Assembly: GCA_003599755.1 (NCBI GenBank)
Contig: QZJO01000011.1
Span: forward strand, 66,424-130,423
DNA length: 64,000 nt
Direction: 5' to 3'
Source: Candidatus Parcubacteria bacterium
Lineage (GTDB): Bacteria; Patescibacteriota; Minisyncoccia; Sungbacterales; SURF-37
Position 1 is the stretch's first letter. Every line of letters begins with the position of its first letter. The notes beneath the pieces are model-generated. The model was not told where the DNA came from and searched no databases. It saw nothing but the letters and a program-made list of their open reading frames with translations. Below, in pieces: positions 6,173-33,436 of the stretch. The translations under genes were made by a program, and so were the position numbers.

Positions 6173-6700
6173 TTAGCGTGATCGGCCGCCGGTCCGGCGC
6201 CGCGATCCGGCGCGTCGGAGACGAATTAAGCGCGCGGTTGCTCCCCTGCCGGTCGGCACTTCGCTCGCTTCGGCCGCCACGGCGGCCTGGCGTTCGCGCT
6301 CAGCCGCGTCCAATTTTTCCGCAACGCGCTGGCGTAGATCCGCCAAGCTCCAGCGCGTGCGCATGGTCAATTCGAATACGCCCTGATCCACGGCTTGGAT
6401 GGCTTTGGGCGCCTCGTGCTCGGCATTGGCCAGCATCACGACTGGCGTCTGGCGCCCCCAGGCATCCTGGCGGAGCTTTTGCAGCATGGCAAAACCCTCC
6501 ATGCGCGCCATGAGCGGATCGAGGATGATAAGATCCGGCCGTTCGCGCTGGGCGCTTGCCAGCCCTTCGCCGCCGGTCCGGGCGCCGAAGACGCGGTAGC
6601 CCGCACCCGCGAATTCCTCCAATAAAATGCGGAGGAGCGACGGCTCGTCCTCCACCACAAGAATTTTTTGCTGAACCCGGGTTGGTGTTGCTACTTCCAT
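6173..6700 (-). CDS. response regulator receiver-domain protein (no DNA-binding output domain)
   Basis: KILVVEDEPSL...DLIILD...PVVMLAN receiver motifs; C-terminal coiled/Arg-rich tail; start at ATG 6700 (MEVATP...). Confidence 0.7.
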   Translation of the reverse strand: MEVATPTRVQQKILVVEDEPSLLRILLEEFAGAGYRVFGARTGGEGLASAQRERPDLIILDPLMARMEGFAMLQKLRQDAWGRQTPVVMLANAEHEAPKAIQAVDQGVFELTMRTRWSLADLRQRVAEKLDAAERERQAAVAAEASEVPTGRGATARLIRLRRAGSRRRTGGRSR

Positions 6701-6915
6701 AGGTAATGCCCTGTAAGAATGACGCCCAAAGCGGTCGCGTCTTTCGCCGATACATATTCGGCAGTACAACGCCATAGATTATGAACGGCCTCCCCGTTTC
6801 GCATGCCGCTCTTTCAACCCCAGGGGGCCGGCGTCTTCGCCGTTGTAGTATCGGGCATACGCGAACCGAGGCCCGCGGATGCGGGCCTCGGTCTCGATTC
6901 GCTATTCGGTTGGAT

Positions 6916-8664
6916 TTAGAGCCTGATCGCCTGGTAATCGTCGAACTCGACGTCCATGAAGTCGGTGCGGATGCCGGCGTAGGCGCCTTGAGTGAACGCG
7001 CCGCCGCCGAATTGCCCGGTATCCGTGGTGTCTAAGACGAGCGTCCAGTTGCCCGTTCGCCCCACGTCGGTCCAGAGTTTCAGGTTTACGCCAGAACCGG
7101 CGTTGACCGTTTCCAGGCGCATGCCGACCCACGTGTTTTTGGGTAGGAGGTTCGGATTGGATGCGGCGTTATACGATCCGGTGAAGATTTTTTTCGACGC
7201 CATCGTGAAGTACCGGCTGCCGATTTTCTTTTTGAAGACCGCCGCCCCGTCTACGCGGAGTCCGGCGTAGTACAAGTTCTGCCCGTCGGCGTAGCGGCTG
7301 AAGAAGAGTACGCCGTTGGATGCGTTGCGGTTCGAACTCTGCGAGAGATTGTCGGCCGTGATGCGGAAGTACATCTCCTGGCGGGCGTTTTGGAACACCT
7401 GCTTGGTCAGAAGGCGGAAGATGTTTTGCGGGTGCAGGCCGTTATCGGTGTCATAGGCGTTTGCCGCCGCGTAGATTTTTTGCCATTTCGAGCCGAGCGG
7501 CAGGGCGCCTTGGATCGTTTTGCCGATGCCGTTGGCCACGGTCATGAGCGCGCCCGAGTTGACCCACCAATAGGGACTCGATGATTCGCCCATGGATCCG
7601 GTCTCTTCGATCGTCGCGTTGGTTGCCAGGCCATATCCGCTGCCTGATCCCGGACTGGCTGCCGGCGGCGGAGGCGTGGGCGTGGGTGCCGGAGCCGGCG
7701 CGGGTGCTGGCGCAAGTGCGGGCGTTGGCGTCGGCGCGGGGGCGGGTGCGGGAGCGGGGGCCGGCGCGGGCGGCGGCGTTTTGGCGAGCGTCGCGACCGC
7801 GGCGGGCGCCGCCGATTCAACGAGGAAGTCATCGAACGAGACATCCTGGAAATCGGACCAGATGCCCGACCGCCCCGTCTCATCGATGGCGCTCGAAATG
7901 TCGCGGGCCTTCAGGACTTCGCGCCATCGGCCGGTCTTGCCGTCATCTACGGAGAGCGTGAGGACGACCGCGCTGCCGTCGTTTCGCGCGTCGAGCTTTA
8001 CGCCGATCCAGCGATGCTCCGGAATCAGGTTCGCGTCGCCCTGCGCGCTGAACGTGCCCGGGAAGTGCTTCGCGTAGCCCAGGGTCTGGTAGGCGCCGTT
8101 CAGTTTCTTTTTGATCACCACGCCGCCGTCGGCTCGGATGCCGGCAACGTAGAATGTTTGGTCATCCTGGAAGCGGGACATCACGAAGATGCCGTTCCAA
8201 GGATTTCTGTTTTGGGGATTTGCAAGATTGGTCTTGTGGGAGCGGGCGTAGAAGGACGTGGCACCGTCTTGCCAGGCGTCGCGGGAAAGCAGGCGGAAGA
8301 TGTTTTGCGGATGCGTGCCGTTGTCGGAGAGGGCGGGATATACGGATGCGTAATGCTGATGCCAGGGATCGCGTGCGGGCATTTCGCCGGCAAGCGTTTT
8401 GCCGATGCCGTCGGCCATCACGAGACGGCCGCCGGATTCGAGCCACCAGTAGCGGCTTCGGGATTTCTCGGCGCTTTCAGCTTCTTCGAGCGTGCCGGCC
8501 CAGTTGAAGTTATACAGATAGGTCGACCCAGTCGTGGCTGCAGTGACGCTCGTCATGACGGCCGGGGCAGTCAACGCCGCGGAACCGATGAGCAGTGCTG
8601 CAACAGTACGGAACGGGATGCGCCGGAATTTGATATCCGGCGATCCCTCGGAATTCGCATTCAT
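6916..8664 (-). CDS. secreted protein with two tandem ~230-aa uncharacterised beta-sandwich-like domains joined by a (PA)n linker
   Basis: Signal peptide FRRIPFRTVAALLIGSAALTAPAVM; duplicated YWW(L/V)xSGG...NGIGKT...HPQNIFRLL...NRNxxNG...YYAGLRxDG...IKKK...FDD(F/Y) module; paralog of 10461..11351. Confidence 0.65.
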   Translation of the reverse strand: MNANSEGSPDIKFRRIPFRTVAALLIGSAALTAPAVMTSVTAATTGSTYLYNFNWAGTLEEAESAEKSRSRYWWLESGGRLVMADGIGKTLAGEMPARDPWHQHYASVYPALSDNGTHPQNIFRLLSRDAWQDGATSFYARSHKTNLANPQNRNPWNGIFVMSRFQDDQTFYVAGIRADGGVVIKKKLNGAYQTLGYAKHFPGTFSAQGDANLIPEHRWIGVKLDARNDGSAVVLTLSVDDGKTGRWREVLKARDISSAIDETGRSGIWSDFQDVSFDDFLVESAAPAAVATLAKTPPPAPAPAPAPAPAPTPTPALAPAPAPAPAPTPTPPPPAASPGSGSGYGLATNATIEETGSMGESSSPYWWVNSGALMTVANGIGKTIQGALPLGSKWQKIYAAANAYDTDNGLHPQNIFRLLTKQVFQNARQEMYFRITADNLSQSSNRNASNGVLFFSRYADGQNLYYAGLRVDGAAVFKKKIGSRYFTMASKKIFTGSYNAASNPNLLPKNTWVGMRLETVNAGSGVNLKLWTDVGRTGNWTLVLDTTDTGQFGGGAFTQGAYAGIRTDFMDVEFDDYQAIRL

Positions 8665-9231
8665 GCGGGAATCCCGCGATGCAGTCCGGGGCGAGCATCC
8701 GCAGCCGTGCAGGCGATACGGTCTGGATACGGATGTCCGCTGACGGAGATGCGCGCGGGGCGAACTAACAGAAGTAACCAAGAGAACATGCGCCATCCTT
8801 CATCCCTGCGGATGCCTATTGCGGAGCAGCCGGGATGACGCGAGACGGGATGGCGGTTCAGTCCGTGGTGCGGAATAGATGCTTCGAGGAGCATGGTCGG
8901 TCCGCGCGAGGCGCTGCCGGAGGTACCACCGGTCGCGCTGATGCGCAGGAGTGCCGACGAAAACCGCGCCGCGGGCCAGCTCGATAATGCAATGCCAGCC
9001 ATTCGCGGAAACCTCGGGAGAAGAGTTCCCCTACGACCCTACGACGACAATCTCGACGGTTGTCGCGTACGGCCTCGGGGACTATACCTTCGGCCACGGT
9101 GTTCCGCCATACGAATGTGGAAAACCCCTCGGTTGACTCGGCCGCCGGTTCTCGGTTTAGCAAAACCCATTCCCGCTTTGCAGAGCGGGAATGGGTTCGA
9201 GATGCGTGCCGCGCCAGCCGTTTCGGGCGAT

Positions 9232-10455
9232 TCAGGGGCGGATGCGAGCTGCGCCCGTGGCGTTCGTTACAACGGGAACTCCCGAGGCAGTCAAGTATTC
9301 CATCATTTGCCGGAATTTGTCGGGTGTCGTGCTATAGGTAGTACCCGAGTTGTTGACCTGATGGAAGACGAGGATCAGCCAGACCCCGTCCCGGCGTGCT
9401 TGATCGATCCATCCGCGTACTTCGGCGACCGTCGTGCCGACTCCCACGTTCTGGCGGCGCAGATTATACGGATCATCGCCGAAGCGCACGAATCCGTTCC
9501 AGGTGGAGCGGCCGGCGCTGTAGCCCGCGCTTTTGACCGCAGCGATGACTTCATCATCGAACGCGCCGAAAGGATACGATATCGTTGTGGCCTGAATGCC
9601 CATGGCCGCCAAATCCTCTTTGGATCCGGCTACTTCGGCCATGAGCGCGGATCCGGAAAGCGTGGTCAGATCGGCATGGGTGCGCGTATGCGAGCCGATC
9701 TCATGGCCGGCCGCATGCGCTTCCAGAATCTGACTCTCGGTCATGTAAGCGGGCCATCCGGTGCGCCGCGTGATGATGTTCATCGTCGTGCGAACGCCGT
9801 TTGCGGCCAAGATCGGGGCAATGGTCTGGTACGTATCCCGCCATCCGTCGTCGAAATTGACCGATACCATGCCGCTCATGGGCGGCGGCGCGGGCGCTGC
9901 TTCTTCGAGCACGTAGTTGTCTACGGTCAGCGAGCCCGTGCTCTTTATGAGATGAAATACCGTTAGCGCCACCGCGCCCGCAGGTGCGCTAAACGTTCCC
10001 GATGCGTTTCGCCAGGAGCCGCCGCTCGAGGGTAGGACGGCGATGTCTTTCCACGTATGCGTTCCGTTGGAGTGGCGGTATTGGACCGTGACGTAACTTT
10101 GGGTGTTGGATTGGTAATTATCCGTGAAGCTATAGGTCTTGCCGCTGGCGGTCGGGATTTCGGCGAAATACCATTTCGCATCCCCGCTCGAATAACTCGT
10201 AATGGCGACTGCAGCGGCTTTGGACGAATTGAAACCGGCGACCGGATACGTGAATGTCGCCTGGTTCGTTCCCCAGCGGCCGCGGGCCCAGGATGCCGGA
10301 TTGCCGCCTGAGCCGGCGGTCTCGAGCGACGGGTTTTGTACGAGATTGGCTGCCGCGGCCGATATCGGCGTCCAAACCGCGATCGCGGCGAATATGGCGA
10401 GCGCAAACCACGTCGCGGCGCGCGGTCGCGGTATACAGATGGATGCGGTATGCAT
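9232..10455 (-). CDS. secreted carbohydrate-binding (CBM_4_9-like) plus NodB-type polysaccharide deacetylase
   Basis: Signal peptide; LVQNPSLE...WYFAEI CBM-like region; NodB motifs VSVNFDDGWRD and HEIGSHTRTH. Confidence 0.7.
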   Translation of the reverse strand: MHTASICIPRPRAATWFALAIFAAIAVWTPISAAAANLVQNPSLETAGSGGNPASWARGRWGTNQATFTYPVAGFNSSKAAAVAITSYSSGDAKWYFAEIPTASGKTYSFTDNYQSNTQSYVTVQYRHSNGTHTWKDIAVLPSSGGSWRNASGTFSAPAGAVALTVFHLIKSTGSLTVDNYVLEEAAPAPPPMSGMVSVNFDDGWRDTYQTIAPILAANGVRTTMNIITRRTGWPAYMTESQILEAHAAGHEIGSHTRTHADLTTLSGSALMAEVAGSKEDLAAMGIQATTISYPFGAFDDEVIAAVKSAGYSAGRSTWNGFVRFGDDPYNLRRQNVGVGTTVAEVRGWIDQARRDGVWLILVFHQVNNSGTTYSTTPDKFRQMMEYLTASGVPVVTNATGAARIRP

Positions 10456-10460
10456 AATAG

Positions 10461-11351
10461 TTAGTCGTTCGTGATGGTTAGAATACGGTATTCGTCGAAT
10501 TCGACATCGAGAAAATCGGTGCGAATGCCGCCGCGACCCGGTTCGGTGATGGCCGATCCGCCGACTCGCCCGTCGTCATGCGCTTCGGCCACGAGGCGCC
10601 AGGCGCCTTTCCGATTCCGATCGAAGAACATGCGTATGATGACGGTGCCGTCGGCCTGATCTTGCACTTCGCCGATCAGGCCGAACCATTGATCGCGCGG
10701 TATGAGCGTAGGGTTTTGTTCGCGGTCATACCGGCCGGCAAAGATGGGAGCGCTGGCAAGTTCATAGTAGGTGCCGTTGATTTTTTTCTTGATCGTCGCC
10801 TGCCCGTCTACGCGCAGGCCGACATAGTACAGCGTCTCCGAGTCCTGGTACCGGTGATAGAATCCCACTCCGTTGGATGCGTTCCGGTTGGGACTTTGAC
10901 TATGGTGTTCGCCGCGAATCCGGAAATACGCGATTTGACGTTCATTCCGCCAGCGGTCGCGGGTGAGCAGGCGGAGCAGATTCTGCGGGTGCGCGCCATC
11001 ATCGGTATCGACGGGGTTCGATGCGCGGTAGCGCGTCCGCCAGGACGATTCCTCGCCAAGGTCCCCCATCAGGCCTGCGGCCACGCCGCCGGCTATCGTG
11101 ACCGCGCCGCCCGAGTTAACCCACCAATACCGATCGGTCGATTCGTCCGGCGTCGCGGTTTCTTCGATCACGCGATCTTCGGCAAAGTGTTCATAGAGGG
11201 CTGGGGGCGGAACATCCAGCGATTCCATGGGTCGCTCGCCCGCCCCGATGATCACGGCCAATGCGATCAGCGCCGCTCCGAGCGCCCAGAGTTTGGATCG
11301 AAGCGAGTGAATCAGTTGGCTTGCGGCCTCGCGCAGCGCGGCAACGGTCAT
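10461..11351 (-). CDS. membrane-anchored single-domain paralog of the 6916..8664 tandem-domain protein
   Basis: Start at internal ATG 11351 (MTVAALREA...); N-terminal TM segment LWALGAALIALAVII; same YWWVNSGG...HPQNLLRLL...FDEY domain. The ORF-track N-terminal extension is low-complexity Ser/Arg sequence. Confidence 0.6.
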   Translation of the reverse strand: MTVAALREAASQLIHSLRSKLWALGAALIALAVIIGAGERPMESLDVPPPALYEHFAEDRVIEETATPDESTDRYWWVNSGGAVTIAGGVAAGLMGDLGEESSWRTRYRASNPVDTDDGAHPQNLLRLLTRDRWRNERQIAYFRIRGEHHSQSPNRNASNGVGFYHRYQDSETLYYVGLRVDGQATIKKKINGTYYELASAPIFAGRYDREQNPTLIPRDQWFGLIGEVQDQADGTVIIRMFFDRNRKGAWRLVAEAHDDGRVGGSAITEPGRGGIRTDFLDVEFDEYRILTITND

Positions 11352-11361
11352 AGCGAAACGG

Positions 11362-12972
11362 TCACGGAGCGGCGGCGGTTGCCGGCGAGAGCGGAATCGC
11401 TCGCACCTCGCGCAAGACCAGCTGGCTTGCGTCCGGGCGCGCATCCCAGCCCTTGATGCCCACGCCTCCGGAATCGAGCGCTCGTTCGAGAAACGGCGTC
11501 GCGACGATGACTTCGCCGTTGAGCAGGCATTCGACGCTCCGGCCCCGGACGCGGATGGCGACTTCGAAGTTTCGTTCCGGAAGACTGGCGGCACGTTCGA
11601 CGCCGCGGATGACGCGCAGATCCCCGAGGTATTTCTGCTCGACGTGGGCAACCTGCTGGCTGAAGTTGCACGCGACGAAATTGTCATCGTTCTTGAAGCG
11701 CCCCCAGAGGTAGATATTCCCGCCGGCAAGCCGATCGACCACGGCGGTGAACTGATAATCGCGCCACGCCCGCGTGCCATCCAACAGGGCCGCGCTGCCG
11801 GTATCGTTGGCGGTGGGATGGAGCGCGAGCATGCCGCCGCGATGCTCCAGTACGCCCCAGGTACGGATCCAACCCGTGTCGCGATCGAGCGTGTCGGTGA
11901 ACGGCAGGGGCTTGGCGAGCCCCGCGTCCAGGCGTTCCAGAAGTTCTTCGATCCCCCATTCCGCCCGCACCTCGATGCGCCGGATGAAAAAATGTTCGCT
12001 GGCGTTGCCGCCCGGGTGATAGTTTTGCGTGAAGCGGTTGTCGTCGGACTGCTGGTAAAAAGCCATTGCGTAGATGGACAAGGCGCTGCCGAGTACGATG
12101 TCGCGCGCTTCGGGGTGGTTGAACGTCGGTTCGCCGAAATTGCCAAACGGAAACGCGAAGCCGGTGACGCGGGTGCCGAGCGTATCTTCAAGATTGCGCT
12201 TCGACGATAGGAGATCCTCCAGTACGCGATTCATGAATTCATCATTCGTCTCGAGGCGCCCCGGGCCGGCAAGCCAGAGTTTATTCGAGAAAAAATGCCC
12301 CATGTTGCCCGCGTCATCCACCGGATAGAATTCGTGCGCGTTGTTGCCGTGCGAATGGACTTCCCAGCGGCCGCTTTGAATCATTTGCTTCAACTCCTCG
12401 CCGCTCAGATAGTATTTGCTATTTTGATTCAGCGAAAATTTCGTGATTGCGAACATGACCGCCCGATAATCCAGGGCCTTGAGTACCGGATCCACGGGGT
12501 AATAGCTGTCTTTGCGGCCGTCGTCGAATGTGAGCACGAACGATTTTTCCGGAGGCTTTTTTTCGCCGCGCAGAAATGCATAGAGTTCCGCCAGCGTGAC
12601 GGTCTCCCAGCCGGCCCGTTTGAGCGCGAACATTTGCTCCTTGAAGTGCTGGTTCGGCACGTTGATGCCGCCGGGCGCGGCAACCACGCCGTGGTACAAG
12701 AGCACCGGAATGGATTCTGCCGGCCGCGGCGGCGTGGTCGAGATCGCGCCGGCCGCGGCGCGCGACGCCTCGCCGCCGAACCGATATTCGATCGCATAGC
12801 GGATCGTGTCGGCCCAGATGCCGGCGTAGCGAAAACTCAGATACGGATTATCGCGGGCGAATGAGACGCCCGCGATAAGGCCGGCGGCTACCATCATGAT
12901 GATGCCGAAAAATACAATCTTTGACGTGGTCGGCGTGTGCGTACGGAGCATAGGGGTCAGCGCGTTCCCCAT
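11362..12972 (-). CDS. membrane-anchored NodB-type polysaccharide deacetylase (PgaB/IcaB-like) with C-terminal extra domain
   Basis: VLLYHGV...LTFDDGRKDSY...HSHG motifs; N-terminal TM segment; start choice 12972 vs 12951 unresolved. Confidence 0.7.
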   Translation of the reverse strand: MGNALTPMLRTHTPTTSKIVFFGIIMMVAAGLIAGVSFARDNPYLSFRYAGIWADTIRYAIEYRFGGEASRAAAGAISTTPPRPAESIPVLLYHGVVAAPGGINVPNQHFKEQMFALKRAGWETVTLAELYAFLRGEKKPPEKSFVLTFDDGRKDSYYPVDPVLKALDYRAVMFAITKFSLNQNSKYYLSGEELKQMIQSGRWEVHSHGNNAHEFYPVDDAGNMGHFFSNKLWLAGPGRLETNDEFMNRVLEDLLSSKRNLEDTLGTRVTGFAFPFGNFGEPTFNHPEARDIVLGSALSIYAMAFYQQSDDNRFTQNYHPGGNASEHFFIRRIEVRAEWGIEELLERLDAGLAKPLPFTDTLDRDTGWIRTWGVLEHRGGMLALHPTANDTGSAALLDGTRAWRDYQFTAVVDRLAGGNIYLWGRFKNDDNFVACNFSQQVAHVEQKYLGDLRVIRGVERAASLPERNFEVAIRVRGRSVECLLNGEVIVATPFLERALDSGGVGIKGWDARPDASQLVLREVRAIPLSPATAAAP

Positions 12973-14312
12973 CCGCGGTCGCGGATGCGCAGCAGGGCAT
13001 AGAGGATCAGGAAGGAAAAGAAGAACGTGTTGAGCGCGCCCCAGAGATATAGGTACGGCCAGTAGCGGTTTTCTGGCGCCAGGATGCGGTAGTACAGGAC
13101 GACCAGCGACGTCATGAGGATGATGCCGAGGAAATAAAACAACGGCAGTATGCCGTACGCGAGCGGCGAAAAATAGAGCGCGCGGACCGCGACGAACGGC
13201 GTGGCAATGGTGATGACCAACAGCGGGATGAAATACGTCACGGTAAAGAACGGCTGCGTCCGGTACATGAAGCGCAGCGTGAAGAGCGAATTGATGATCC
13301 AAGATTTTTTCCAGCGGATTTGCTGGCGGACGAGCTGCCGGAAGCGTTCGGGCACGATCGTATAGGCGCGGGCGCGGTCGGTGTAGACGGTGCGGTAGTT
13401 TCGCTTCAGGACCCAGCTGGTCAGCGCGCGGTCATCGCCCCAGGTTACCGGCAGACCGAGGAAACGCTCGTTGAGCCAGTCGTCGAGGATCGGCATGACC
13501 GCGTTCTTGCGATACGCGGACGAGCAGCCGCTGCAGCAGAGTACCGTGAAAAGCGAGGATTCGGCCGCCTTGAGAATGCGGAACGACATGAAATAGTACG
13601 CCGCCTGCATGCGGGTGAGGATATTGTGATCGGCGTTGTGCGGGTCGGCGTGCGCACAGACCGCGCCGATGTCTTCGTGCTGAAACGGCGCGATAAGGTT
13701 TCGGAACGTGCGCGGGATGATGTAACTGTCCGAATCGAGCTGCACGACGATCTCGCCCCGCGCCCGGCGGAACCCTTCGGCCATGGCATGGCGTTTGCCA
13801 CGATTCTGTTTCCAATGGACGATGACAAGCCGCCGGCGATCGCGCTCGCCGAGTACCCGTTTCAATTCCGCAAGCATGTGCGCCGTGCCGTCGGTGCTAC
13901 CATCGTTGATGACGATGACTTCGAGTTTATCCTTGGGGTACTGCGCGCCGAGCGACTGCAGAACCGTACGCACGATTGCGCCTTCCTCGTTTTTGCACGG
14001 TATGACGATCGAAACCGTCGGTTCGTAGCGGCGGTCATCCGGTTCAATCACGCGGGCATTCGCGCGCCGGTAGAGCATTGCCGCGCCCACGCGCGAAAGC
14101 TGGAATGTGGTGATAAAGATCGTATAGCCGTAAAAGACCGGATGAGTGAAAAAGTCCGTCGCGGTTTTGGCCTTTACGAGAATAATGCCGACCAGTATGG
14201 TGGCGGTCAGAACCAGAATCGACGCGATTGAATTGCGGCGGGCCGTGGAGCCCGCCGCCGGCTTCGCGCGATATGCCGGGCGCTGTATCGTAATGGCAGA
14301 TGGATCGGTCAT
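12957..14312 (-). CDS. family-2 glycosyltransferase, processive polysaccharide synthase (PgaC/IcaA/cellulose-synthase-like)
   Basis: VSIVIPCKNEE, INDGSTDGT, QLDSDSYI (DxD), QQIRWKKSW (QxxRW) plus multiple TM helices. Confidence 0.8.
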   Translation of the reverse strand: MTDPSAITIQRPAYRAKPAAGSTARRNSIASILVLTATILVGIILVKAKTATDFFTHPVFYGYTIFITTFQLSRVGAAMLYRRANARVIEPDDRRYEPTVSIVIPCKNEEGAIVRTVLQSLGAQYPKDKLEVIVINDGSTDGTAHMLAELKRVLGERDRRRLVIVHWKQNRGKRHAMAEGFRRARGEIVVQLDSDSYIIPRTFRNLIAPFQHEDIGAVCAHADPHNADHNILTRMQAAYYFMSFRILKAAESSLFTVLCCSGCSSAYRKNAVMPILDDWLNERFLGLPVTWGDDRALTSWVLKRNYRTVYTDRARAYTIVPERFRQLVRQQIRWKKSWIINSLFTLRFMYRTQPFFTVTYFIPLLVITIATPFVAVRALYFSPLAYGILPLFYFLGIILMTSLVVLYYRILAPENRYWPYLYLWGALNTFFFSFLILYALLRIRDRGWGTR

Positions 14313-14363
14313 GGGTACGTATGGGGTATGCGCATCGCATGGGAACGGAGCGCACGTGAAGCG

Positions 14364-15233
14364 TTACGTCGGCCGGGCGCCGAGCGCCGAAGGAATGGTT
14401 GAGACGGCCGGGCTCGGCTCGGCGACGCCGCCCGCGCGGAGTTCTTCATTGATCGCCAAGAGCGCGGCAAGCAGGGGTGAAGCGGTCAGATGCGCGAGCG
14501 CGGTCACGTCTTTGGGCAGGCATTTGCCGCCGAAGCCCCGATACCCTTTGTGCCAGATGATCGAATGGCTGTCCCCGATCCACGGATGCTGGACAAGTAC
14601 TTCTCGCACCGCTTCATAATCGGCACTGAGAAGCGCACAGGCGTTGTAGATCTCGTTGAAAAAGACGACTTTCGTCGCGAAAAAAGAATTCATGGCGTGT
14701 TTGAGCACCTCGGCATCGCGCGCGGACATAACGCGCCGTATCGGGGCATCGGGCAGCAGGGCGAACAAATCATCCCGCAGCGGATGAAACACGTCGGCCA
14801 GGCCGAGAATCTGGAACTGGGGTTTTGCGAAATCATCCCAGGCGGTCGCTTCGGTCAAAAACTCCGGGTTATAGCAGAACGTAAGGTCGCGATGCACTTC
14901 TTGGAAATAATCCGTGGTGCCGGGCGCGAAGGTGGATTTAATGATGACGACGGTTCCGGGCGCCATGCGCGTAAAATACGCGCTCATAATGCGGCGGTGC
15001 TCGGCGCTCGTGCAGTTGTCGGGAAAATTAACCGCGACGAAGATGATTTCCTGCGATACGGTTTCTTCGATCGAATCCCAATTCCCGGGCTTGATGTCAT
15101 ACCATTTGGCCTCTGGGTAATAGCGTTTCAGTATGTCGCCGACAAAACCCGCGCCGATGATGCCGATGTTCGCCGGCTTGGCGCTGCCGCGGGCGGGTCG
15201 GCTCGTGCGCGACGATGGTTGCGGGTGATGCAT
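14364..15233 (-). CDS. UDP-glucose/GDP-mannose dehydrogenase family protein (short, lacks C-terminal UDP-binding domain)
   Basis: NIGIIGAGFVG Rossmann motif and catalytic GFGGKCLPKD; only 289 aa. Confidence 0.65.
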   Translation of the reverse strand: MHHPQPSSRTSRPARGSAKPANIGIIGAGFVGDILKRYYPEAKWYDIKPGNWDSIEETVSQEIIFVAVNFPDNCTSAEHRRIMSAYFTRMAPGTVVIIKSTFAPGTTDYFQEVHRDLTFCYNPEFLTEATAWDDFAKPQFQILGLADVFHPLRDDLFALLPDAPIRRVMSARDAEVLKHAMNSFFATKVVFFNEIYNACALLSADYEAVREVLVQHPWIGDSHSIIWHKGYRGFGGKCLPKDVTALAHLTASPLLAALLAINEELRAGGVAEPSPAVSTIPSALGARPT

Positions 15234-15713: not shown

Positions 15714-16547
15714 TTATGACGTGGTTGCAGGCGGAGTAGTGGTAGCAGCCGGCGGCGTTGTGGTGGCACCGGATGGCGGGGCGGGCGGAGTTGTGGTTCC
15801 GCTCGCGGGTGGAGGTGCGGGCGGCGTAGTGGTTGCCGGAGGAGGAGCGGGGGCAGGTGCCGGAGCGGGCGCTGGCGTGCCGCCAGGACGGATTACCGCG
15901 AGTGAAGCGCCATAGATGGCGATCAATCGCTGCAGCGTGATATCGTCCACCGTGCCGCTCATGACAAGGCCATGGCGTCCCTGGAAGCGTTTAATTGCGG
16001 CTTCGGTCAATGGTCCGAAATAGCCCGTGATCAGACCCTCAGGGTAGATCGCGCGATCGGTGGCAAGAGCCGACTGCAGTGCGGTGACGCCGGCTCCCCG
16101 ATCGCCTCGATCGAGATATGCGCCCGTCGCACCCGGCTGTATGGCGTTGAGTTCAGCTATGATGGAGGAAAGCTGCGTGAGGGCATGAGCGGCAAATGCC
16201 GATTTTTCTTGGGGCGTAGTCGTAGCGGAAAACCGCGCAAGTTCGGCGGTCGTGCTTGCGACAAATGCGCTCGCTCGTTCGAGAACATCCTCGCGTCGGG
16301 CGATGGTAAGCTGATTCGTGATCGTGGCGAGCCGGTTCGCGGCGGCGGTCGCGATCGCGGTGCGTTCGGCCGGAGTCGAGGTGGCGGTGATGCGGGCGAT
16401 ATCCGATTGCACGGCAGCAAGATCGAGCGCGATCTGGCCGAGCAGCGCTTCGACGTGCGAAGCCGCGGCCGGAATGGCACCGGCAAGTATGGCGGCCAGG
16501 CCGATGCCTACGGCAATACTGCGGCGAGAATGAAGAAAGTTTTTCAT
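15714..16547 (-). CDS. secreted peptidoglycan-binding (PG_binding_1) domain protein with Pro/Thr-rich C-terminal tail
   Basis: Signal peptide; GDRGAGVTALQSALA...GYFGPLTEAAIKRFQ PG-binding motif; PAPAPAPAPP/TTTPP tail. Confidence 0.65.
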   Translation of the reverse strand: MKNFLHSRRSIAVGIGLAAILAGAIPAAASHVEALLGQIALDLAAVQSDIARITATSTPAERTAIATAAANRLATITNQLTIARREDVLERASAFVASTTAELARFSATTTPQEKSAFAAHALTQLSSIIAELNAIQPGATGAYLDRGDRGAGVTALQSALATDRAIYPEGLITGYFGPLTEAAIKRFQGRHGLVMSGTVDDITLQRLIAIYGASLAVIRPGGTPAPAPAPAPAPPPATTTPPAPPPASGTTTPPAPPSGATTTPPAATTTPPATTS

Positions 16548-16649: not shown

Positions 16650-17930
16650 TCAGATCTTGGTGCGTACCATGGCCAGCACCGCGGCCGCAGACCATGCTTG
16701 CTGCCGGCAGCCGATCTGGCCGCTTGGCGAGCAGTACTCAAAATACGTCGTTTTATCGCGCATATAGAGTTCGATCGGACCGCCGAAGAATCGGATTGGC
16801 CGAAGCGAGGCGCGCTTGAGCCGCCGGGCTTGGGCGAAATAGCCGTAGTGCATGAGCCCTTCGAATATGAGGCCGTTGAGCATCGGCCAAAAACTGCCGT
16901 TGTGATACGAATCGCTGCCGGGATTGTACGTTGGCGAGCGCTTGGACATGGTGCGGATGCCGGCACGCGGGTCATACAGATCCCGGGCGAATGCGCGGCG
17001 TACGAAATCCGGCACATAGCGGTCATCCACGATCGAATGTACGCGCTCCTCTCGGTCCCGTTCAGCGGCCCAGAGGCAGATCAGCGGGTTCGCGGTGATG
17101 GTGCGGATTTGCCGCTTCTTGCCGTCCAGGGCCTGGGCGGCAAACCAGAGACCGTGCGTGCGAAATAAAAATTTCTCGTGGAATGCGGAACGAATGGCGT
17201 CGGCCTTGGCTCTCAGGCGGGCGGCAAAGTCCGGCGCCCGAGCGCTAAACTCGCCGGCCCACAATCGAAGCGCCAGCCACGCGAAGGCCTGTACTTCGAC
17301 CGGTGCGATCGGATATTCGGGCAGCATTCCGTCTGGCTGCAAGAGCGCCTCGCGCGAGTCGGTCCAAGAATGGATGGCGAGCCCGCCGAAGCGGCGGTCC
17401 GGCGGCGGCGCGTATTCTATGACGTGATCGTTGTCCGCGTCCGCATCGGTGAGCAACCAACGGAGCGCGGCCTCGGCGGCCGGCAGAACTTCGGCGAGAA
17501 ACTGATTGTCCCCGCTCGCTTGCCAATAGCGGTAGAACGCGATGAGGACGAGCGGCGTAGCGTCGATGGAATCGTAATTCCGAAGCGTCCCGTCCGGGTA
17601 TACGTACCATGGCCGCTCGCCGGTCGTGAGATGCTCGTGGCGATCGCGGCGAAATTCGTGGATGAATTTTCCCGGCTCCTCCCCGCTTTCCGGATTGCGT
17701 ACCCGGCCTTGCAGCTGAATCATGGCGCTCAGCGCTCGGCGCGACGTTGCCAATAGAAACGGATCCGGCCGCAGCGCGTAGGCAGCCAAGAGCTTCAGCA
17801 CGGTGACCGCGGTGTCCCGGCCGAAAATAGCGCCGAACGCCTCATGGCGGGCCGACGCCAAAATACCTTCCGGCGTCGCGAGCTCCGTAATCGTCGTATA
17901 CATCTTTCGTTCCAGCTCGCGCGCGGTCAT
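16650..17930 (-). CDS. GDE_C-type (amylo-alpha-1,6-glucosidase-like, (alpha/alpha)6-barrel) glycoside hydrolase
   Basis: SFWPMLNGL and CRQQAWSAAA motifs typical of the GDE_C/GH63-like fold; overlaps upstream GT4 gene by 4 nt (ATGA). Confidence 0.65.
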   Translation of the reverse strand: MTARELERKMYTTITELATPEGILASARHEAFGAIFGRDTAVTVLKLLAAYALRPDPFLLATSRRALSAMIQLQGRVRNPESGEEPGKFIHEFRRDRHEHLTTGERPWYVYPDGTLRNYDSIDATPLVLIAFYRYWQASGDNQFLAEVLPAAEAALRWLLTDADADNDHVIEYAPPPDRRFGGLAIHSWTDSREALLQPDGMLPEYPIAPVEVQAFAWLALRLWAGEFSARAPDFAARLRAKADAIRSAFHEKFLFRTHGLWFAAQALDGKKRQIRTITANPLICLWAAERDREERVHSIVDDRYVPDFVRRAFARDLYDPRAGIRTMSKRSPTYNPGSDSYHNGSFWPMLNGLIFEGLMHYGYFAQARRLKRASLRPIRFFGGPIELYMRDKTTYFEYCSPSGQIGCRQQAWSAAAVLAMVRTKI

Positions 17931-19060
17931 ATGCCAGGGCCTCCGGCCAATTGATAATACAGTCGCTCGTACCGTTCAACCATCACTTCGGCGTTGAAAT
18001 GGCGCAAGGCATGCCGCCGGCATTCGGCGCGGTTGATTTTACCTACGCGCGTCACCGCGTCGATCATGGCATCGATATTCGCCACGACATAGCCGGTGCG
18101 GCCGTGCGCAATAACTTCGCGCATCGAGCCGCGGTCGAATGCGATCACCGGCGTGCCGCATGCCATTGATTCAATGATGGTAAGGCCGAACGGTTCTTCC
18201 CACGTGATGGGATGCAGCATGGCGAGCGCCCGGCTCATCAGCCGGTTGCGCGCCGCTTCATCGACCTCGCCGATCCATTTGATCTGGTCGTTCGAGAGCT
18301 TAGGTCGAATATATTCGCGGTAGTAAGCAAGGTCAACCGTATCGAGCTTCGCCGCAATAATTAGCGGTATGTTCAAGTACTGGGCAACCTCGATAGCATG
18401 GTGCGTGCCCTTCTCCATCGAGATGCGGCCGACGAACAAGAGGTATCCGTCATGCGTCGGCGAAAACGGATACGACTCCATGGCGAGGCCGTTGTATACC
18501 GTGCCGATATGATTCGGCAGACTGTGGATATATGCGCCTTGGGAGCGGGAGATCGAGACGACGCGGGGGCGGTTCATGACCTGGTACATCCGCCGAATCA
18601 AGGTGGAAAACGGGCCATGATAAGTCGCGAGGACCGGCTTTCGGGAAAGATTCGCCGTCGGCAAACTGATATAGCCGATATGATCGTGGATCACGTCGAA
18701 CCGGCCGCCCATTTGATAGGCCGTGCCGATATTAAGCATGGTCCAGGAGTTCAAGCCGTAGATATCCGCGATGCGGGCCTCGCGCAGCGCCCGTGGGTAG
18801 ACGGAAACAAGCTTCGCGTCGGTGCGCGAATCGCCGCTGGCAAACAGGGTGACGGCGTGGCCGCGCCGAACCAGCCCTTCGGTAAGGGCGCTGACGACGC
18901 GTTCGGTTCCCCCGTACTTCTTGGGCGGTACGCTTTCGATCAGCGGTGCGATCTGGGCAATGCGGAGCGGCCTGCCTGCCGAATGGGCAGGCACTCCAGG
19001 GCGGCGGTCTTTGGGCGGCATGATGTACCGGTAACAAAAAACGGAATGGAGCTTTGTCAT
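17927..19060 (-). CDS. family-4 glycosyltransferase
   Basis: EPFGLTIIESMACGTPVIA GT4 signature and RIAQIAPL N-terminus; start 19060 or 19021 uncertain. Confidence 0.75.
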   Translation of the reverse strand: MTKLHSVFCYRYIMPPKDRRPGVPAHSAGRPLRIAQIAPLIESVPPKKYGGTERVVSALTEGLVRRGHAVTLFASGDSRTDAKLVSVYPRALREARIADIYGLNSWTMLNIGTAYQMGGRFDVIHDHIGYISLPTANLSRKPVLATYHGPFSTLIRRMYQVMNRPRVVSISRSQGAYIHSLPNHIGTVYNGLAMESYPFSPTHDGYLLFVGRISMEKGTHHAIEVAQYLNIPLIIAAKLDTVDLAYYREYIRPKLSNDQIKWIGEVDEAARNRLMSRALAMLHPITWEEPFGLTIIESMACGTPVIAFDRGSMREVIAHGRTGYVVANIDAMIDAVTRVGKINRAECRRHALRHFNAEVMVERYERLYYQLAGGPGI

Positions 19061-19156
19061 ACATGACGGTGCGCGCCGCGCGCCATTACGCGCGTAGCGG
19101 GAATCAAAAACGCCGTCCCGGCGCATGGCAGGACGGCGTCGTTGCGGCAATGGCGA

Positions 19157-32734: not shown

Positions 32735-33022
32735 TGCGTGCTCCTGGGTGTTCGGTGTTGGTTGTTCGGCTCACCGCAAGAAATTCCGCGAATGCGAACT
32801 GCGCCCGGGGCCTCCTTTCCGAGTCGGTGACTTCAAACAGAATGGATGGAAATCGGTCCTCTTTGAAGCCACCGAAGTATTGAAAGGATAATATTACATT
32901 ATCACTTTCCGCATAAAAAGTCAATAGGAGACATCCGTGCGTTTTTGAAAGTCATTATTCCGGGCTACGTCGTCTGCTTCGTCGCTGATTGCCAATTATC
33001 CGCAATAATTTTGCACTCGATT

Positions 33023-33436
33023 ATGACAACCCGGCAAAGGTTTGGTTATGCCGTGGCAGCTGGCATGACTCTTCTTGCCGTGCTTCCTTCCACGTTCGCT
33101 GTCGCGGAGACGGAAACTTCGCTCCCCCGGCATCCCATCATCGTAAACGAGACCGTCGCGTGGGAGTCAAACGCGATTCCCGTCCAGGCCGGACGGCGTT
33201 ACATTTTTTCCGACCAGTACCTTGCGAACGTGACGAATGAAATCGATATTCGATATATGTTGGCCAATGGCTCGCACTTGGATGTGCGCGTAGAACAATT
33301 CGGCAGCAGCCGAGTTTGGAATAATGCCGCGATCAGCTTCGCCGCGCCGCCGAATGCCGTATCTATGGTCATTACGCATCGGATACACGGCAGCGGCTAT
33401 ATTGTTGCGCGGAATTTCAAACTCGTGGCGGAGTAG
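33023..33436 (+). CDS. secreted hypothetical protein (137 aa)
   Basis: Signal peptide MTTRQRFGYAVAAGMTLLAVLPSTFAVAETE; no family recognised. Confidence 0.5.
   Translation: MTTRQRFGYAVAAGMTLLAVLPSTFAVAETETSLPRHPIIVNETVAWESNAIPVQAGRRYIFSDQYLANVTNEIDIRYMLANGSHLDVRVEQFGSSRVWNNAAISFAAPPNAVSMVITHRIHGSGYIVARNFKLVAE

Follow-up and report, generated by a model that had tools for sequence, protein, structure and literature searches.

A candidate surface-polysaccharide cassette of Patescibacteria with a HAS/NodC-related synthase and an uncharacterized ConA-like domain

Several described systems produce extracellular glycans from a small set of genes centered on a membrane synthase. In the class I hyaluronan synthase (HAS) operons (hasA with hasB/hasC, such as hasACB on pXO1 of Bacillus anthracis; CvHAS and XlHAS1 are enzymes of this class), one membrane family 2 glycosyltransferase (GT2) both polymerizes and exports the chain, while the pgaABCD/icaADBC and NodC/NodB systems place a GT2 alongside a deacetylase of carbohydrate esterase family 4 (CE4). 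Other synthase-dependent systems include a polymer-processing component, as seen in BcsZ, AlgL, the C-terminal domain of PgaB, and PelA. The bacteria of the Candidate Phyla Radiation (CPR) and the DPANN archaea account for a large share of microbial diversity and are attached to other cells, and their cell surfaces are poorly understood. Here, we describe a run of six genes in a 64,000-nucleotide stretch of a Candidatus Parcubacteria genome (GCA_003599755.1, contig QZJO01000011.1, positions 66,424 to 130,423; hereafter, the window), two of which encode an uncharacterized domain that we refer to as the UNK domain.

We read this region as a synthase-dependent surface-polysaccharide cassette typical of Patescibacteria, in which the UNK domain serves as a polymer-binding module, and give this reading a probability of roughly 0.5. 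The reading is built on the gene order, its recurrence across genomes, and the folds and fusions of the encoded proteins. The six genes and the parts of the last one are as follows:

14364-15233, minus strand: short nucleotide diphosphate (NDP)-sugar dehydrogenase, similar to UDP-glucose dehydrogenase (UGDH), 289 aa (Pfam PF03721 and PF00984 only)
12957-14312, minus strand: processive membrane GT2 synthase, 451 aa (Pfam Glycos_transf_2 and Chitin_synth_2)
11362-12972, minus strand: membrane-anchored extracytoplasmic CE4 de-N-acetylase, 536 aa from the ATG at 12972 (PF01522; identical to C4552_03885)
10461-11351, minus strand: UNK1, 296 aa, a transmembrane (TM) anchor (aa 3-36) and one UNK domain (~10464-11204; identical to C4552_03880)
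9232-10455, minus strand: secreted CE4 deacetylase, 407 aa, with a signal-like N-terminus, a weak domain like those of carbohydrate-binding module (CBM) family CBM_4_9, and CE4 (PF01522, 4.5e-23)
6916-8664 (open reading frame (ORF) to 8796, 626 aa), minus strand: tandem UNK protein, secreted or anchored, with two UNK domains
~7801-8520, ~6919-7641, and ~7642-7800, minus strand: domain D1, domain D2, and the Pro/Ala/Thr-rich linker of the tandem UNK protein (alignment, tblastn)

A preliminary description of this DNA, made from the sequence without database searches, had outlined the same region, and the ORF listing returned all six minus-strand ORFs at the coordinates it claimed. The overlap of 16 nt that it gave for the GT2 and membrane CE4 genes is exact (CE4 ATG at 12972, GT2 TGA ending at 12957); an alternative CE4 start at the ATG at 12951 would abolish it. 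The dehydrogenase and GT2 genes are spaced by 51 nt, and the UNK1 gene begins 10 nt past the membrane CE4 stop. The tandem UNK protein does contain two copies of the same domain, but the gap ahead of its gene, described as short, is ~570 nt given that the probable start is Met45 (8664), which sits ahead of the hydrophobic segment. A scan for promoters and terminators gave counts that were not above those in shuffled sequence. Along with UNK1 and the membrane CE4, the short dehydrogenase is identical to a previously deposited protein (C4552_03895), the three being neighboring hypothetical proteins of a Candidatus Parcubacteria metagenome-assembled genome.

The grouping of these genes is not particular to the window. 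A scan of a species-representative genome set found 257 stretches encoding an UNK relative, of which the best 79 loci were retrieved (numbered here with the prefix L); 60 were informative in a tblastn survey of neighbors, and 72 entered a clustering of neighboring ORFs. At 43 of the 60 informative loci, UNK is directly preceded on its strand by a GT2 and a membrane CE4, so the cluster recurs as a unit elsewhere, the point on which the preliminary description had staked its proposal. A GT2 was found upstream on the same strand at 49/60, and a dehydrogenase within 6.5 kb upstream on the same strand at 20/60. The unbiased clustering (72 loci) recovered only five recurrent families: UNK (72), GT2 (53), membrane CE4 (49), dehydrogenase (18), and CBM-CE4 (16). 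Less common were histidine kinases (9), response regulators (5), and a giant protein combining heparinase II/III and CE4 domains (4). On long contigs, all four UNK homologs examined showed the order GT2 (Chitin_synth), CE4 (~510-770 aa), UNK, with a full-length dehydrogenase upstream in two of them, and a CBM-CE4 gene is followed by an UNK gene in 11 of 19 cases. The fuller layout of the window is reproduced by L061, L054, and L013; in L001, a nucleotidyltransferase follows. Literature searches returned no description of the cassette or of the UNK domain.

The hosts of the cassette are Patescibacteria together with some metagenome-assembled genomes labeled as DPANN. One of the latter (L038, 1-16801) encodes an archaeal-type ribosomal protein P0 (Ribosomal_L10 and RL10P_insert, 316-1125) on the same stretch as the cassette, indicating that this locus is genuinely archaeal. 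Its dehydrogenase, GT2, and DUF2334/CE4 deacetylase are divergent from UNK, beyond which lie a Laminin_G_3 protein and then GlmS. L034 and L035 are listed alongside L038 for the archaeal occurrence of the cassette.

In a variant form of the cassette, the membrane CE4 is replaced by the giant protein, giving the order GT2, heparinase II/III+CE4, UNK (proteins P0145 and P0155). The positions of the variant are as follows:

L060: 2646-6137
L019: 4468-7785
L043: 3866-7816
L032: 80-3142

The giant protein (~1000-1300 aa) contains heparinase II/III N- and C-domains with CE4, in some cases also fused to UNK, making it a counterpart of PgaB and PelA in which a lyase(-like) part is joined to a deacetylase. 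The GT2 of the variant is of a divergent subtype with Trp at the position of XlHAS1 R287 and WHR instead of WGT.

The synthase has the D,D,D,QxxRW motifs previously claimed for it, which read DGS, DSD, GDDR, and QQIRW in the sequence; DSDS stands in place of DxDT, GLYG is not retained, and the C-terminus is the gating-loop motif GWGTR. With the NCBIfam models, it aligned end to end to NodC (TIGR04242, 176.5 bits; cut-off of 550 not reached) and over the GT domain only to PgaC (TIGR03937, 119.5 bits; cut-off of 422 not reached), and its best PDB sequence matches were XlHAS1 (3.9e-29) and CvHAS. By BLAST, B. anthracis HasA scored 164 bits (32% identity, aa 93-451, ~80% of the protein), compared on the same scale to 127-149 bits for NodC and 84-94 bits for PgaC/IcaA, again over the GT domain only. 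The closest GT2 among the cultured-organism collections searched was from an uncharacterized Paenibacillus locus (36% identity, 243 bits). The Paenibacillus cellulositrophicus locus (L085; plasmid NZ_CP045296.1, 261845-269475) encodes CE4, GT2, CE4, and GH18, the last being a family 18 glycoside hydrolase (GH).

At the acceptor collar and gating-loop positions named for XlHAS1 (PMC11750622), the window GT2 has the residues seen in HAS (Y288, F292, C307, GDDR, QxxRW, S385, and the C-terminal WGTR), compared to E287, C292, and WLS in NodC and E, I/V, GDDI-type, and WVS/WSS in PgaC/IcaA. The position of XlHAS1 R287, which stabilizes glucuronic acid (GlcA), is occupied by Tyr in the window subtype and by Arg in about half of the CPR homologs, while the R296 position is Lys throughout the CPR GT2s. 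The GlcA-carboxylate residues of CvHAS, K177 (GKR) and R341 (QxxRW), are also kept in NodC and PgaC and, being shared with chitin-type enzymes, do not discriminate between hyaluronan and chitin synthesis. In a rough neighbor-joining (NJ) tree (support 24-67%), the CPR, DPANN, and Paenibacillus GT2s formed their own clade, sister to NodC and HAS, with PgaC/IcaA as the outgroup. The archaeal GT2s nested within the subtype of the window, which suggests transfer between bacteria and archaea. An assignment of the product from this tree was dropped, as support of 24-67% is too weak for that purpose. Given the model scores, the BLAST comparisons, the motif columns, and the NJ clade, the GT2 is, as far as sequence comparison goes, a new lineage within the HAS/NodC superfamily, and its product is not readable from sequence alone.

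The membrane CE4 was modeled with AlphaFold 2 (AF2) at a mean predicted local distance difference test (pLDDT) score of 91.9, giving an N-terminal TM helix, a CE4 domain, and a C-terminal beta-sandwich. The CE4 domain is closest in structure to the N-domain of PgaB (Foldseek E 2.5e-19), followed by BpsB, PplD, and IcaB, while the C-terminal domain is closest to CBM66 (Foldseek E 7e-10) and is not a GH153 barrel. Its NCBIfam matches to PgaB and IcaB all fall under the cut-off (87 vs. 322 bits). Its sequence carries TFDDG and HSHxxxxH, the metal and catalytic motifs; in the family alignment, D150, D151, and H208 are (near-)invariant, and two Cys of the C-domain are invariant. In the CE4 downstream of the Paenibacillus GT2, the HSH...H metal motif is missing (WEMGTNGY vs. 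WEVHSHGN in the BLAST alignment), and this protein may be a pseudo-deacetylase.

The second deacetylase had been described as a secreted CBM plus NodB protein. Its CE4 domain is clear (PF01522, with motifs FDDG, HTRTH, and YPFG, an HfsH-like NCBIfam match, and CE4 matches in the PDB), whereas the CBM part is a weak match of its N-domain to CBM_4_9 under the cut-off (E 0.0026). A separate plus-strand ORF of the window (32945-33436) matches this CBM-like N-domain at 33161-33424 (31% identity over 89 aa) and has no Pfam match of its own.

The dehydrogenase carries the Rossmann motif GxGxxG, NPEFL, and the catalytic-Cys motif GGKCLPKD, and its best NCBIfam matches are UDP-glucose 6-dehydrogenases. 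As had been remarked, it has no UDP-binding domain: PF03720, the C-terminal domain in question, was absent in the Pfam search, so the three-domain UGDH architecture is not present. The accompanying description of the gene as truncated was not borne out: the short form is conserved as a family, in which at least 119 further clusters at 90% identity have the same two-domain architecture (240-295 aa, none with PF03720). Relatives are found in both CPR and DPANN and always sit among glycan-synthesis genes. Four loci of the family were noted:

L051, 1576-2427: ortholog of the short dehydrogenase
L086, 9001-9810: family member next to a cassette-type GT2
L087, 7001-7792: family member next to an epimerase/dehydratase and family 4 glycosyltransferases (GT4s)
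L088, 7001-7756: family member next to other glycan genes

A pseudogene or local truncation was thus rejected, with the short form shared by the L051 ortholog and these clusters. Since the two-domain family is conserved in glycan-gene contexts, the enzyme is probably functional despite the missing domain.

The window contains exactly three UNK copies (tblastn of UNK1), which share 35-40% identity and 61 invariant columns in alignment, far beyond chance. The domain, which we measured at ~240 aa, is indeed uncharacterized at the sequence level, as the preliminary description had stated: 51 members gave no Pfam, NCBIfam, or PDB sequence match, even with E up to 10. An exhaustive HMMER search placed the family at a modest 816 clusters at 50% identity. 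We followed the proposed route of AlphaFold modeling and Foldseek comparison, and in the AF2 model of UNK1 (pLDDT 94.7) a TM helix leads into an all-beta domain. The fold is a ConA-like lectin/glucanase beta-sandwich with CBM66 as its best PDB match (Foldseek E 6.5e-8, target-normalized template modeling (TM) score 0.70-0.79). Further matches include the C-terminal domain of GH43, YesU, DUF1080 proteins, GH16, and the polysaccharide lyase (PL) families PL20, PL14, PL28, and PL7 (8-16% identity), and the best matches in BFVD are the LamG-like domains of phage tail fibers. The lyase and GH matches have root-mean-square deviations (rmsd) of 5-13 Å (8-13 Å for the PL-type), and PL7 and GH16 catalytic signatures, when sought in the UNK alignment, could not be read there. 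Two candidate relationships were rejected: UNK and the DUF1080/CBM66-like domain of the membrane CE4 do not form one family (hhalign probability 5%), and a GH16-like ExDxxE in the C-terminal TDFxDVxFD stretch fails because only D279 and D282 are invariant, at a hairpin.

The architectures of UNK proteins are varied. An N-terminal hydrophobic segment is present in 103 of 113 homologs, and two or three UNK copies occur in ~25 of the best 150 clusters. UNK is fused, at either terminus, to GH6 (with CAP or Ig-like domains and PG_binding_1), GH5, and GH10 (with PA14 and dockerin), as well as to heparinase II/III+CE4, to the cassette's own CE4, to PG_binding_1, and to PKD arrays, the PKD-array protein carrying three UNK copies. 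Separately, we noted that in several genomes GH6 genes, and some GH8 or GH5 genes, either adjoin the cassette or encode UNK fusions (proteins P0193, P0141, P0165, and P0122), including the following loci:

L001: 11621-12853
L003: 2806-4776 and 89-2764

Such enzymes are unexpected in organisms not known for cellulose use and may indicate a beta-1,4 backbone of the cassette polymer.

The model we propose starts from these observations of gene content, folds, synteny, and domain fusions. In the cytoplasm, the dehydrogenase, which is optional across genomes, would supply a donor of the UDP-uronic-acid type, and the HAS/NodC-type GT2 would both build a beta-linked chain containing N-acetylglucosamine (GlcNAc) and pass it out through a channel of its own in the membrane. 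Just outside, the TM-anchored CE4, equipped with a CBM66-like domain, would strip some of the N-acetyl groups; by analogy with pga/ica, a GlcNAc polymer would likely be deacetylated in part. This placement of the proteins is suggested by their positive-inside N-termini and the two invariant Cys of the CE4 C-domain. UNK would be a new ConA-like, non-catalytic carbohydrate-binding family specific for the cassette polymer, with the TM-anchored single copy catching or tethering the chain as it emerges at the cell surface, a role comparable to that of the carbohydrate-binding domains in BcsB of cellulose synthase. Further out, the secreted CBM-CE4 may modify the polymer again, and the secreted tandem UNK protein may cross-link or coat it. 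In other genomes, UNK would direct GH5, GH6, and GH10 enzymes, as well as lyase-like, CE4, and adhesin-like proteins, to this polymer.

A binding or tethering role for UNK has, in our estimate, about an even chance of being correct. The preliminary description had left binding and cleavage side by side; both options remain, and binding is now favored given the promiscuous, repeatable use of UNK as an accessory domain, including its tandem copies and fusions. The CE4-UNK fusions additionally argue for CE4 and UNK acting together, and in the variant cassette UNK persists beside a lyase-like domain. As for the polymer, it must carry N-acetyl (or acetyl) groups, given the two CE4 enzymes and the GlmS adjoining the cassette in L038. 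It is probably acidic and glycosaminoglycan-like. Pointing to uronic acid are the many loci with a dehydrogenase right before the GT2 and the fact that two unrelated dehydrogenase lineages occupy that position, one full-length and similar to UDP-ManNAc/UDP-GlcNAc dehydrogenases (L001, L003) and one short and UGDH-like (the window, L051, L086). Heparinase II/III-like domains fused to the cassette CE4 point the same way, known heparinase II/III chemistry acting on uronic-acid polymers (lyases or epimerases), as do two basic residues kept in the channel helix at the HAS R287/R296 positions, with Tyr at R287 in the window subtype.

Several observations weigh against the cassette polymer being acidic or against UNK merely binding it. 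There is no adjacent dehydrogenase in more than half of the loci, and the activity of the window dehydrogenase is uncertain given that it is without a UDP-binding domain. The fold matches of UNK are generic (query-normalized TM score 0.4-0.46, 8-16% identity). Around 20 polar or charged positions (P122-Q123-N124, R127, R156, R167, Y175, R180, D182, K188-K190, D259, D279, and D282) show at least 93% conservation over 294 UNK domain instances, which exceeds the typical needs of a CBM and would be compatible with an active site. Moreover, no conserved GH or PL was found in the common cassette form (72 loci), so UNK could fill the enzyme slot; in the Paenibacillus relative, the third gene encodes a GH18.

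The alternative that survives best, though we regard it as possible rather than probable, is that the polymer is plain chitin or chitosan (beta-1,4-GlcNAc/GlcN), with the dehydrogenases serving other pathways and UNK binding beta-1,4 glycans generally. This would account for the Chitin_synth_2 match, the full-length alignment to the NodC model, the CE4 and GH18 neighbors of the Paenibacillus GT2, the UNK fusions to beta-1,4-glycanases (GH5, GH6, and GH10), and the loci with no dehydrogenase, and the retention of the CvHAS GlcA-carboxylate residues in NodC and PgaC fits as well. It does not readily explain why dehydrogenases of two independent lineages stand immediately upstream of the GT2 in many loci, why heparinase II/III-like domains are fused to the cassette CE4, or why the CPR GT2s share F292, S385, and WGT with HAS and not with NodC.

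Somewhat more doubtful is an enzymatic UNK, whose beta-jelly-roll scaffold would carry a polymer-processing activity (lyase, hydrolase, transglycosylase, or epimerase). Across the 294 domains, fused copies included, many Arg, Lys, Tyr, His, Gln, Asn, and Asp positions are nearly invariant, and the fold matches include the glucuronan lyase family PL20 along with PL14, PL28, PL7, and GH16. UNK also holds the position of GH18 in the Paenibacillus relative, in a cassette otherwise devoid of a conserved GH or PL, and the dehydrogenases suggest a uronic-acid substrate suited to beta-elimination. However, tandem copies and fusion to five catalytic families are typical of CBMs and not of enzymes, and a heparinase-like domain coexists with UNK in the same protein or cassette. 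The large rmsd of the lyase and GH matches, with CBM66 matching best, and the lack of a readable PL7- or GH16-type motif in the alignment likewise favor UNK as a polymer-binding module.

We consider it unlikely that UNK acts as a lectin-type adhesin recognizing host or partner-cell glycans (episymbiotic attachment) instead of the cell's own polymer, being linked to the cassette as one of several co-regulated surface functions. The PKD-array protein with its three UNK copies resembles an adhesin, the phage tail-fiber-like fold matches are in keeping with such a role, and the family is confined to episymbiotic lineages (CPR and DPANN). Yet UNK is in tight operonic linkage, and even fusion, with the cassette's own deacetylase, and most often it takes the form of a short TM-anchored protein, which would hardly reach past the cell's own envelope.

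Least probable is the preliminary description's own proposal of a pga/ica-type poly-N-acetylglucosamine (PNAG; beta-1,6-GlcNAc) system, which has some basis in the deacetylase (closest to PgaB, BpsB, and IcaB by sequence and fold, with model scores far under the cut-offs) and finds some support in the 119 bits of the PgaC model on the GT domain, but falls for the GT2, as HasA and NodC align better than PgaC/IcaA (the lowest scores, GT domain only, 84-94 bits vs. 164 for HasA), the collar and gating residues differ, PgaC/IcaA form the tree outgroup, PgaD/IcaD, PgaA, and GH153 are not present, and overlapping or abutting genes leave no room for a PgaD/IcaD gene. A Nod-factor-like reading was rejected, as NodA is missing and the two deacetylases lie outside the cytoplasm.

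The surroundings of the cassette in the window comprise the following same-strand genes:

6173-6775, minus strand: receiver-only response regulator immediately downstream of the gene for the tandem UNK protein (PF00072, 4.2e-17)
15714-16547, minus strand: PG_binding_1 protein with a Pro/Ala/Thr-rich tail, just upstream of the cassette
16650-17930 and 17927-19150, minus strand: the other two genes just upstream, overlapping by 4 nt, a GDE_C/MGH1-like glycoside hydrolase and a GT4 glycosyltransferase (the GT4 gene overlaps the hydrolase gene)

The response regulator is a possible regulatory neighbor, outside the cassette core. Two-component neighbors elsewhere (histidine kinases at 9 and OmpR-type regulators at 5 of the 72 loci) hint at two-component control, the loci listed being:

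L062: 9967-11130
L054: 8032-8706

None of the three upstream genes is kept with the cassette elsewhere; nevertheless, other genomes encode proteins that join PG_binding_1 to UNK (P0143, P0148, P0141, and P0165).

All parts of the cassette are of known kinds and no new principle is involved, although the cassette does contain a new domain family, UNK. Tentatively, UNK may found a new carbohydrate-active family, whether of CBMs or perhaps of lyases or hydrolases. It would be dedicated to an undescribed surface polymer that is glycosaminoglycan-like, contains uronic acid, and is de-N-acetylated in part, made by a HAS/NodC-sister synthase clade that would be shared horizontally between CPR and DPANN; such a polymer might form a coat for holding surface enzymes and attaching to partners. 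The cassette is a compact, testable candidate for a CPR/DPANN surface glycan, comprising a synthase, a deacetylase, and a lectin-like protein, and the checked DPANN locus shows that it crosses the boundary between bacteria and archaea. It also offers three families for characterization: the ConA-like domain with no Pfam entry, the HAS/NodC-sister synthase clade, and the two-domain "mini" nucleotide-sugar dehydrogenase.

Among described modules, UNK resembles CBM66, DUF1080, and LamG domains in its beta-sandwich, its modular use beside GH, PL, and CE domains, and its tandem copies. It is ~80 residues larger than CBM66, with an N-terminal extension carrying the YWWxNSGG and DTDxGxHPQN motifs, and it has no detectable sequence relationship to any Pfam family, CBM66, DUF1080, and Laminin_G_3 included. 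UNK1 can also be likened to BcsB, a membrane-anchored jelly-roll protein adjoining a processive synthase, the parallel being one of functional analogy only.

Compared to the HAS systems, the cassette has a similar GT2, sharing Y288, F292, C307, GDDR, QxxRW, S385, and WGTR and probably the coupling of polymerization to export, and in many loci a sugar-nucleotide dehydrogenase adjoins the GT2. However, the cassette GT2 falls outside the HAS clade (in the weakly supported NJ tree), lacks GLYG, and has Tyr at R287 in the window subtype. Most cassette dehydrogenases resemble UDP-HexNAc dehydrogenases and not UGDH, and the has operons include neither a deacetylase nor UNK. With pgaABCD/icaADBC, the cassette shares the succession of a GT2 and an extracytoplasmic CE4, the fold of which is closest to the PgaB N-domain and IcaB. 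Here, the GT2 is not of the PgaC/IcaA type, the CE4 bears a CBM66-like domain instead of GH153, and PgaD/IcaD, PgaA, and GH153 were not among the recurrent neighbor families of the 72 loci. NodC/NodB similarly pairs a NodC-like GT2 with an adjoining NodB-homology deacetylase, but the NodC model score lies far under its cut-off and the NodC residues E, C, and WLS contrast with Y/R, F, and WGT in the cassette. The cassette deacetylases are large and membrane-anchored or secreted, whereas NodB is small and cytoplasmic, and NodA has no counterpart. The Paenibacillus cellulositrophicus locus, itself uncharacterized, has the closest GT2 of the cultured-organism collections searched. Behind this GT2 comes a homolog of the membrane CE4, with homology that extends to the start of the beta-sandwich, but the third gene of the locus is GH18 and not UNK. 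By these comparisons, the cassette is neither a PNAG nor a NodBC system and is probably not a canonical HAS system, and it is closest to the has operons by its synthase and to pga/ica by its deacetylase.

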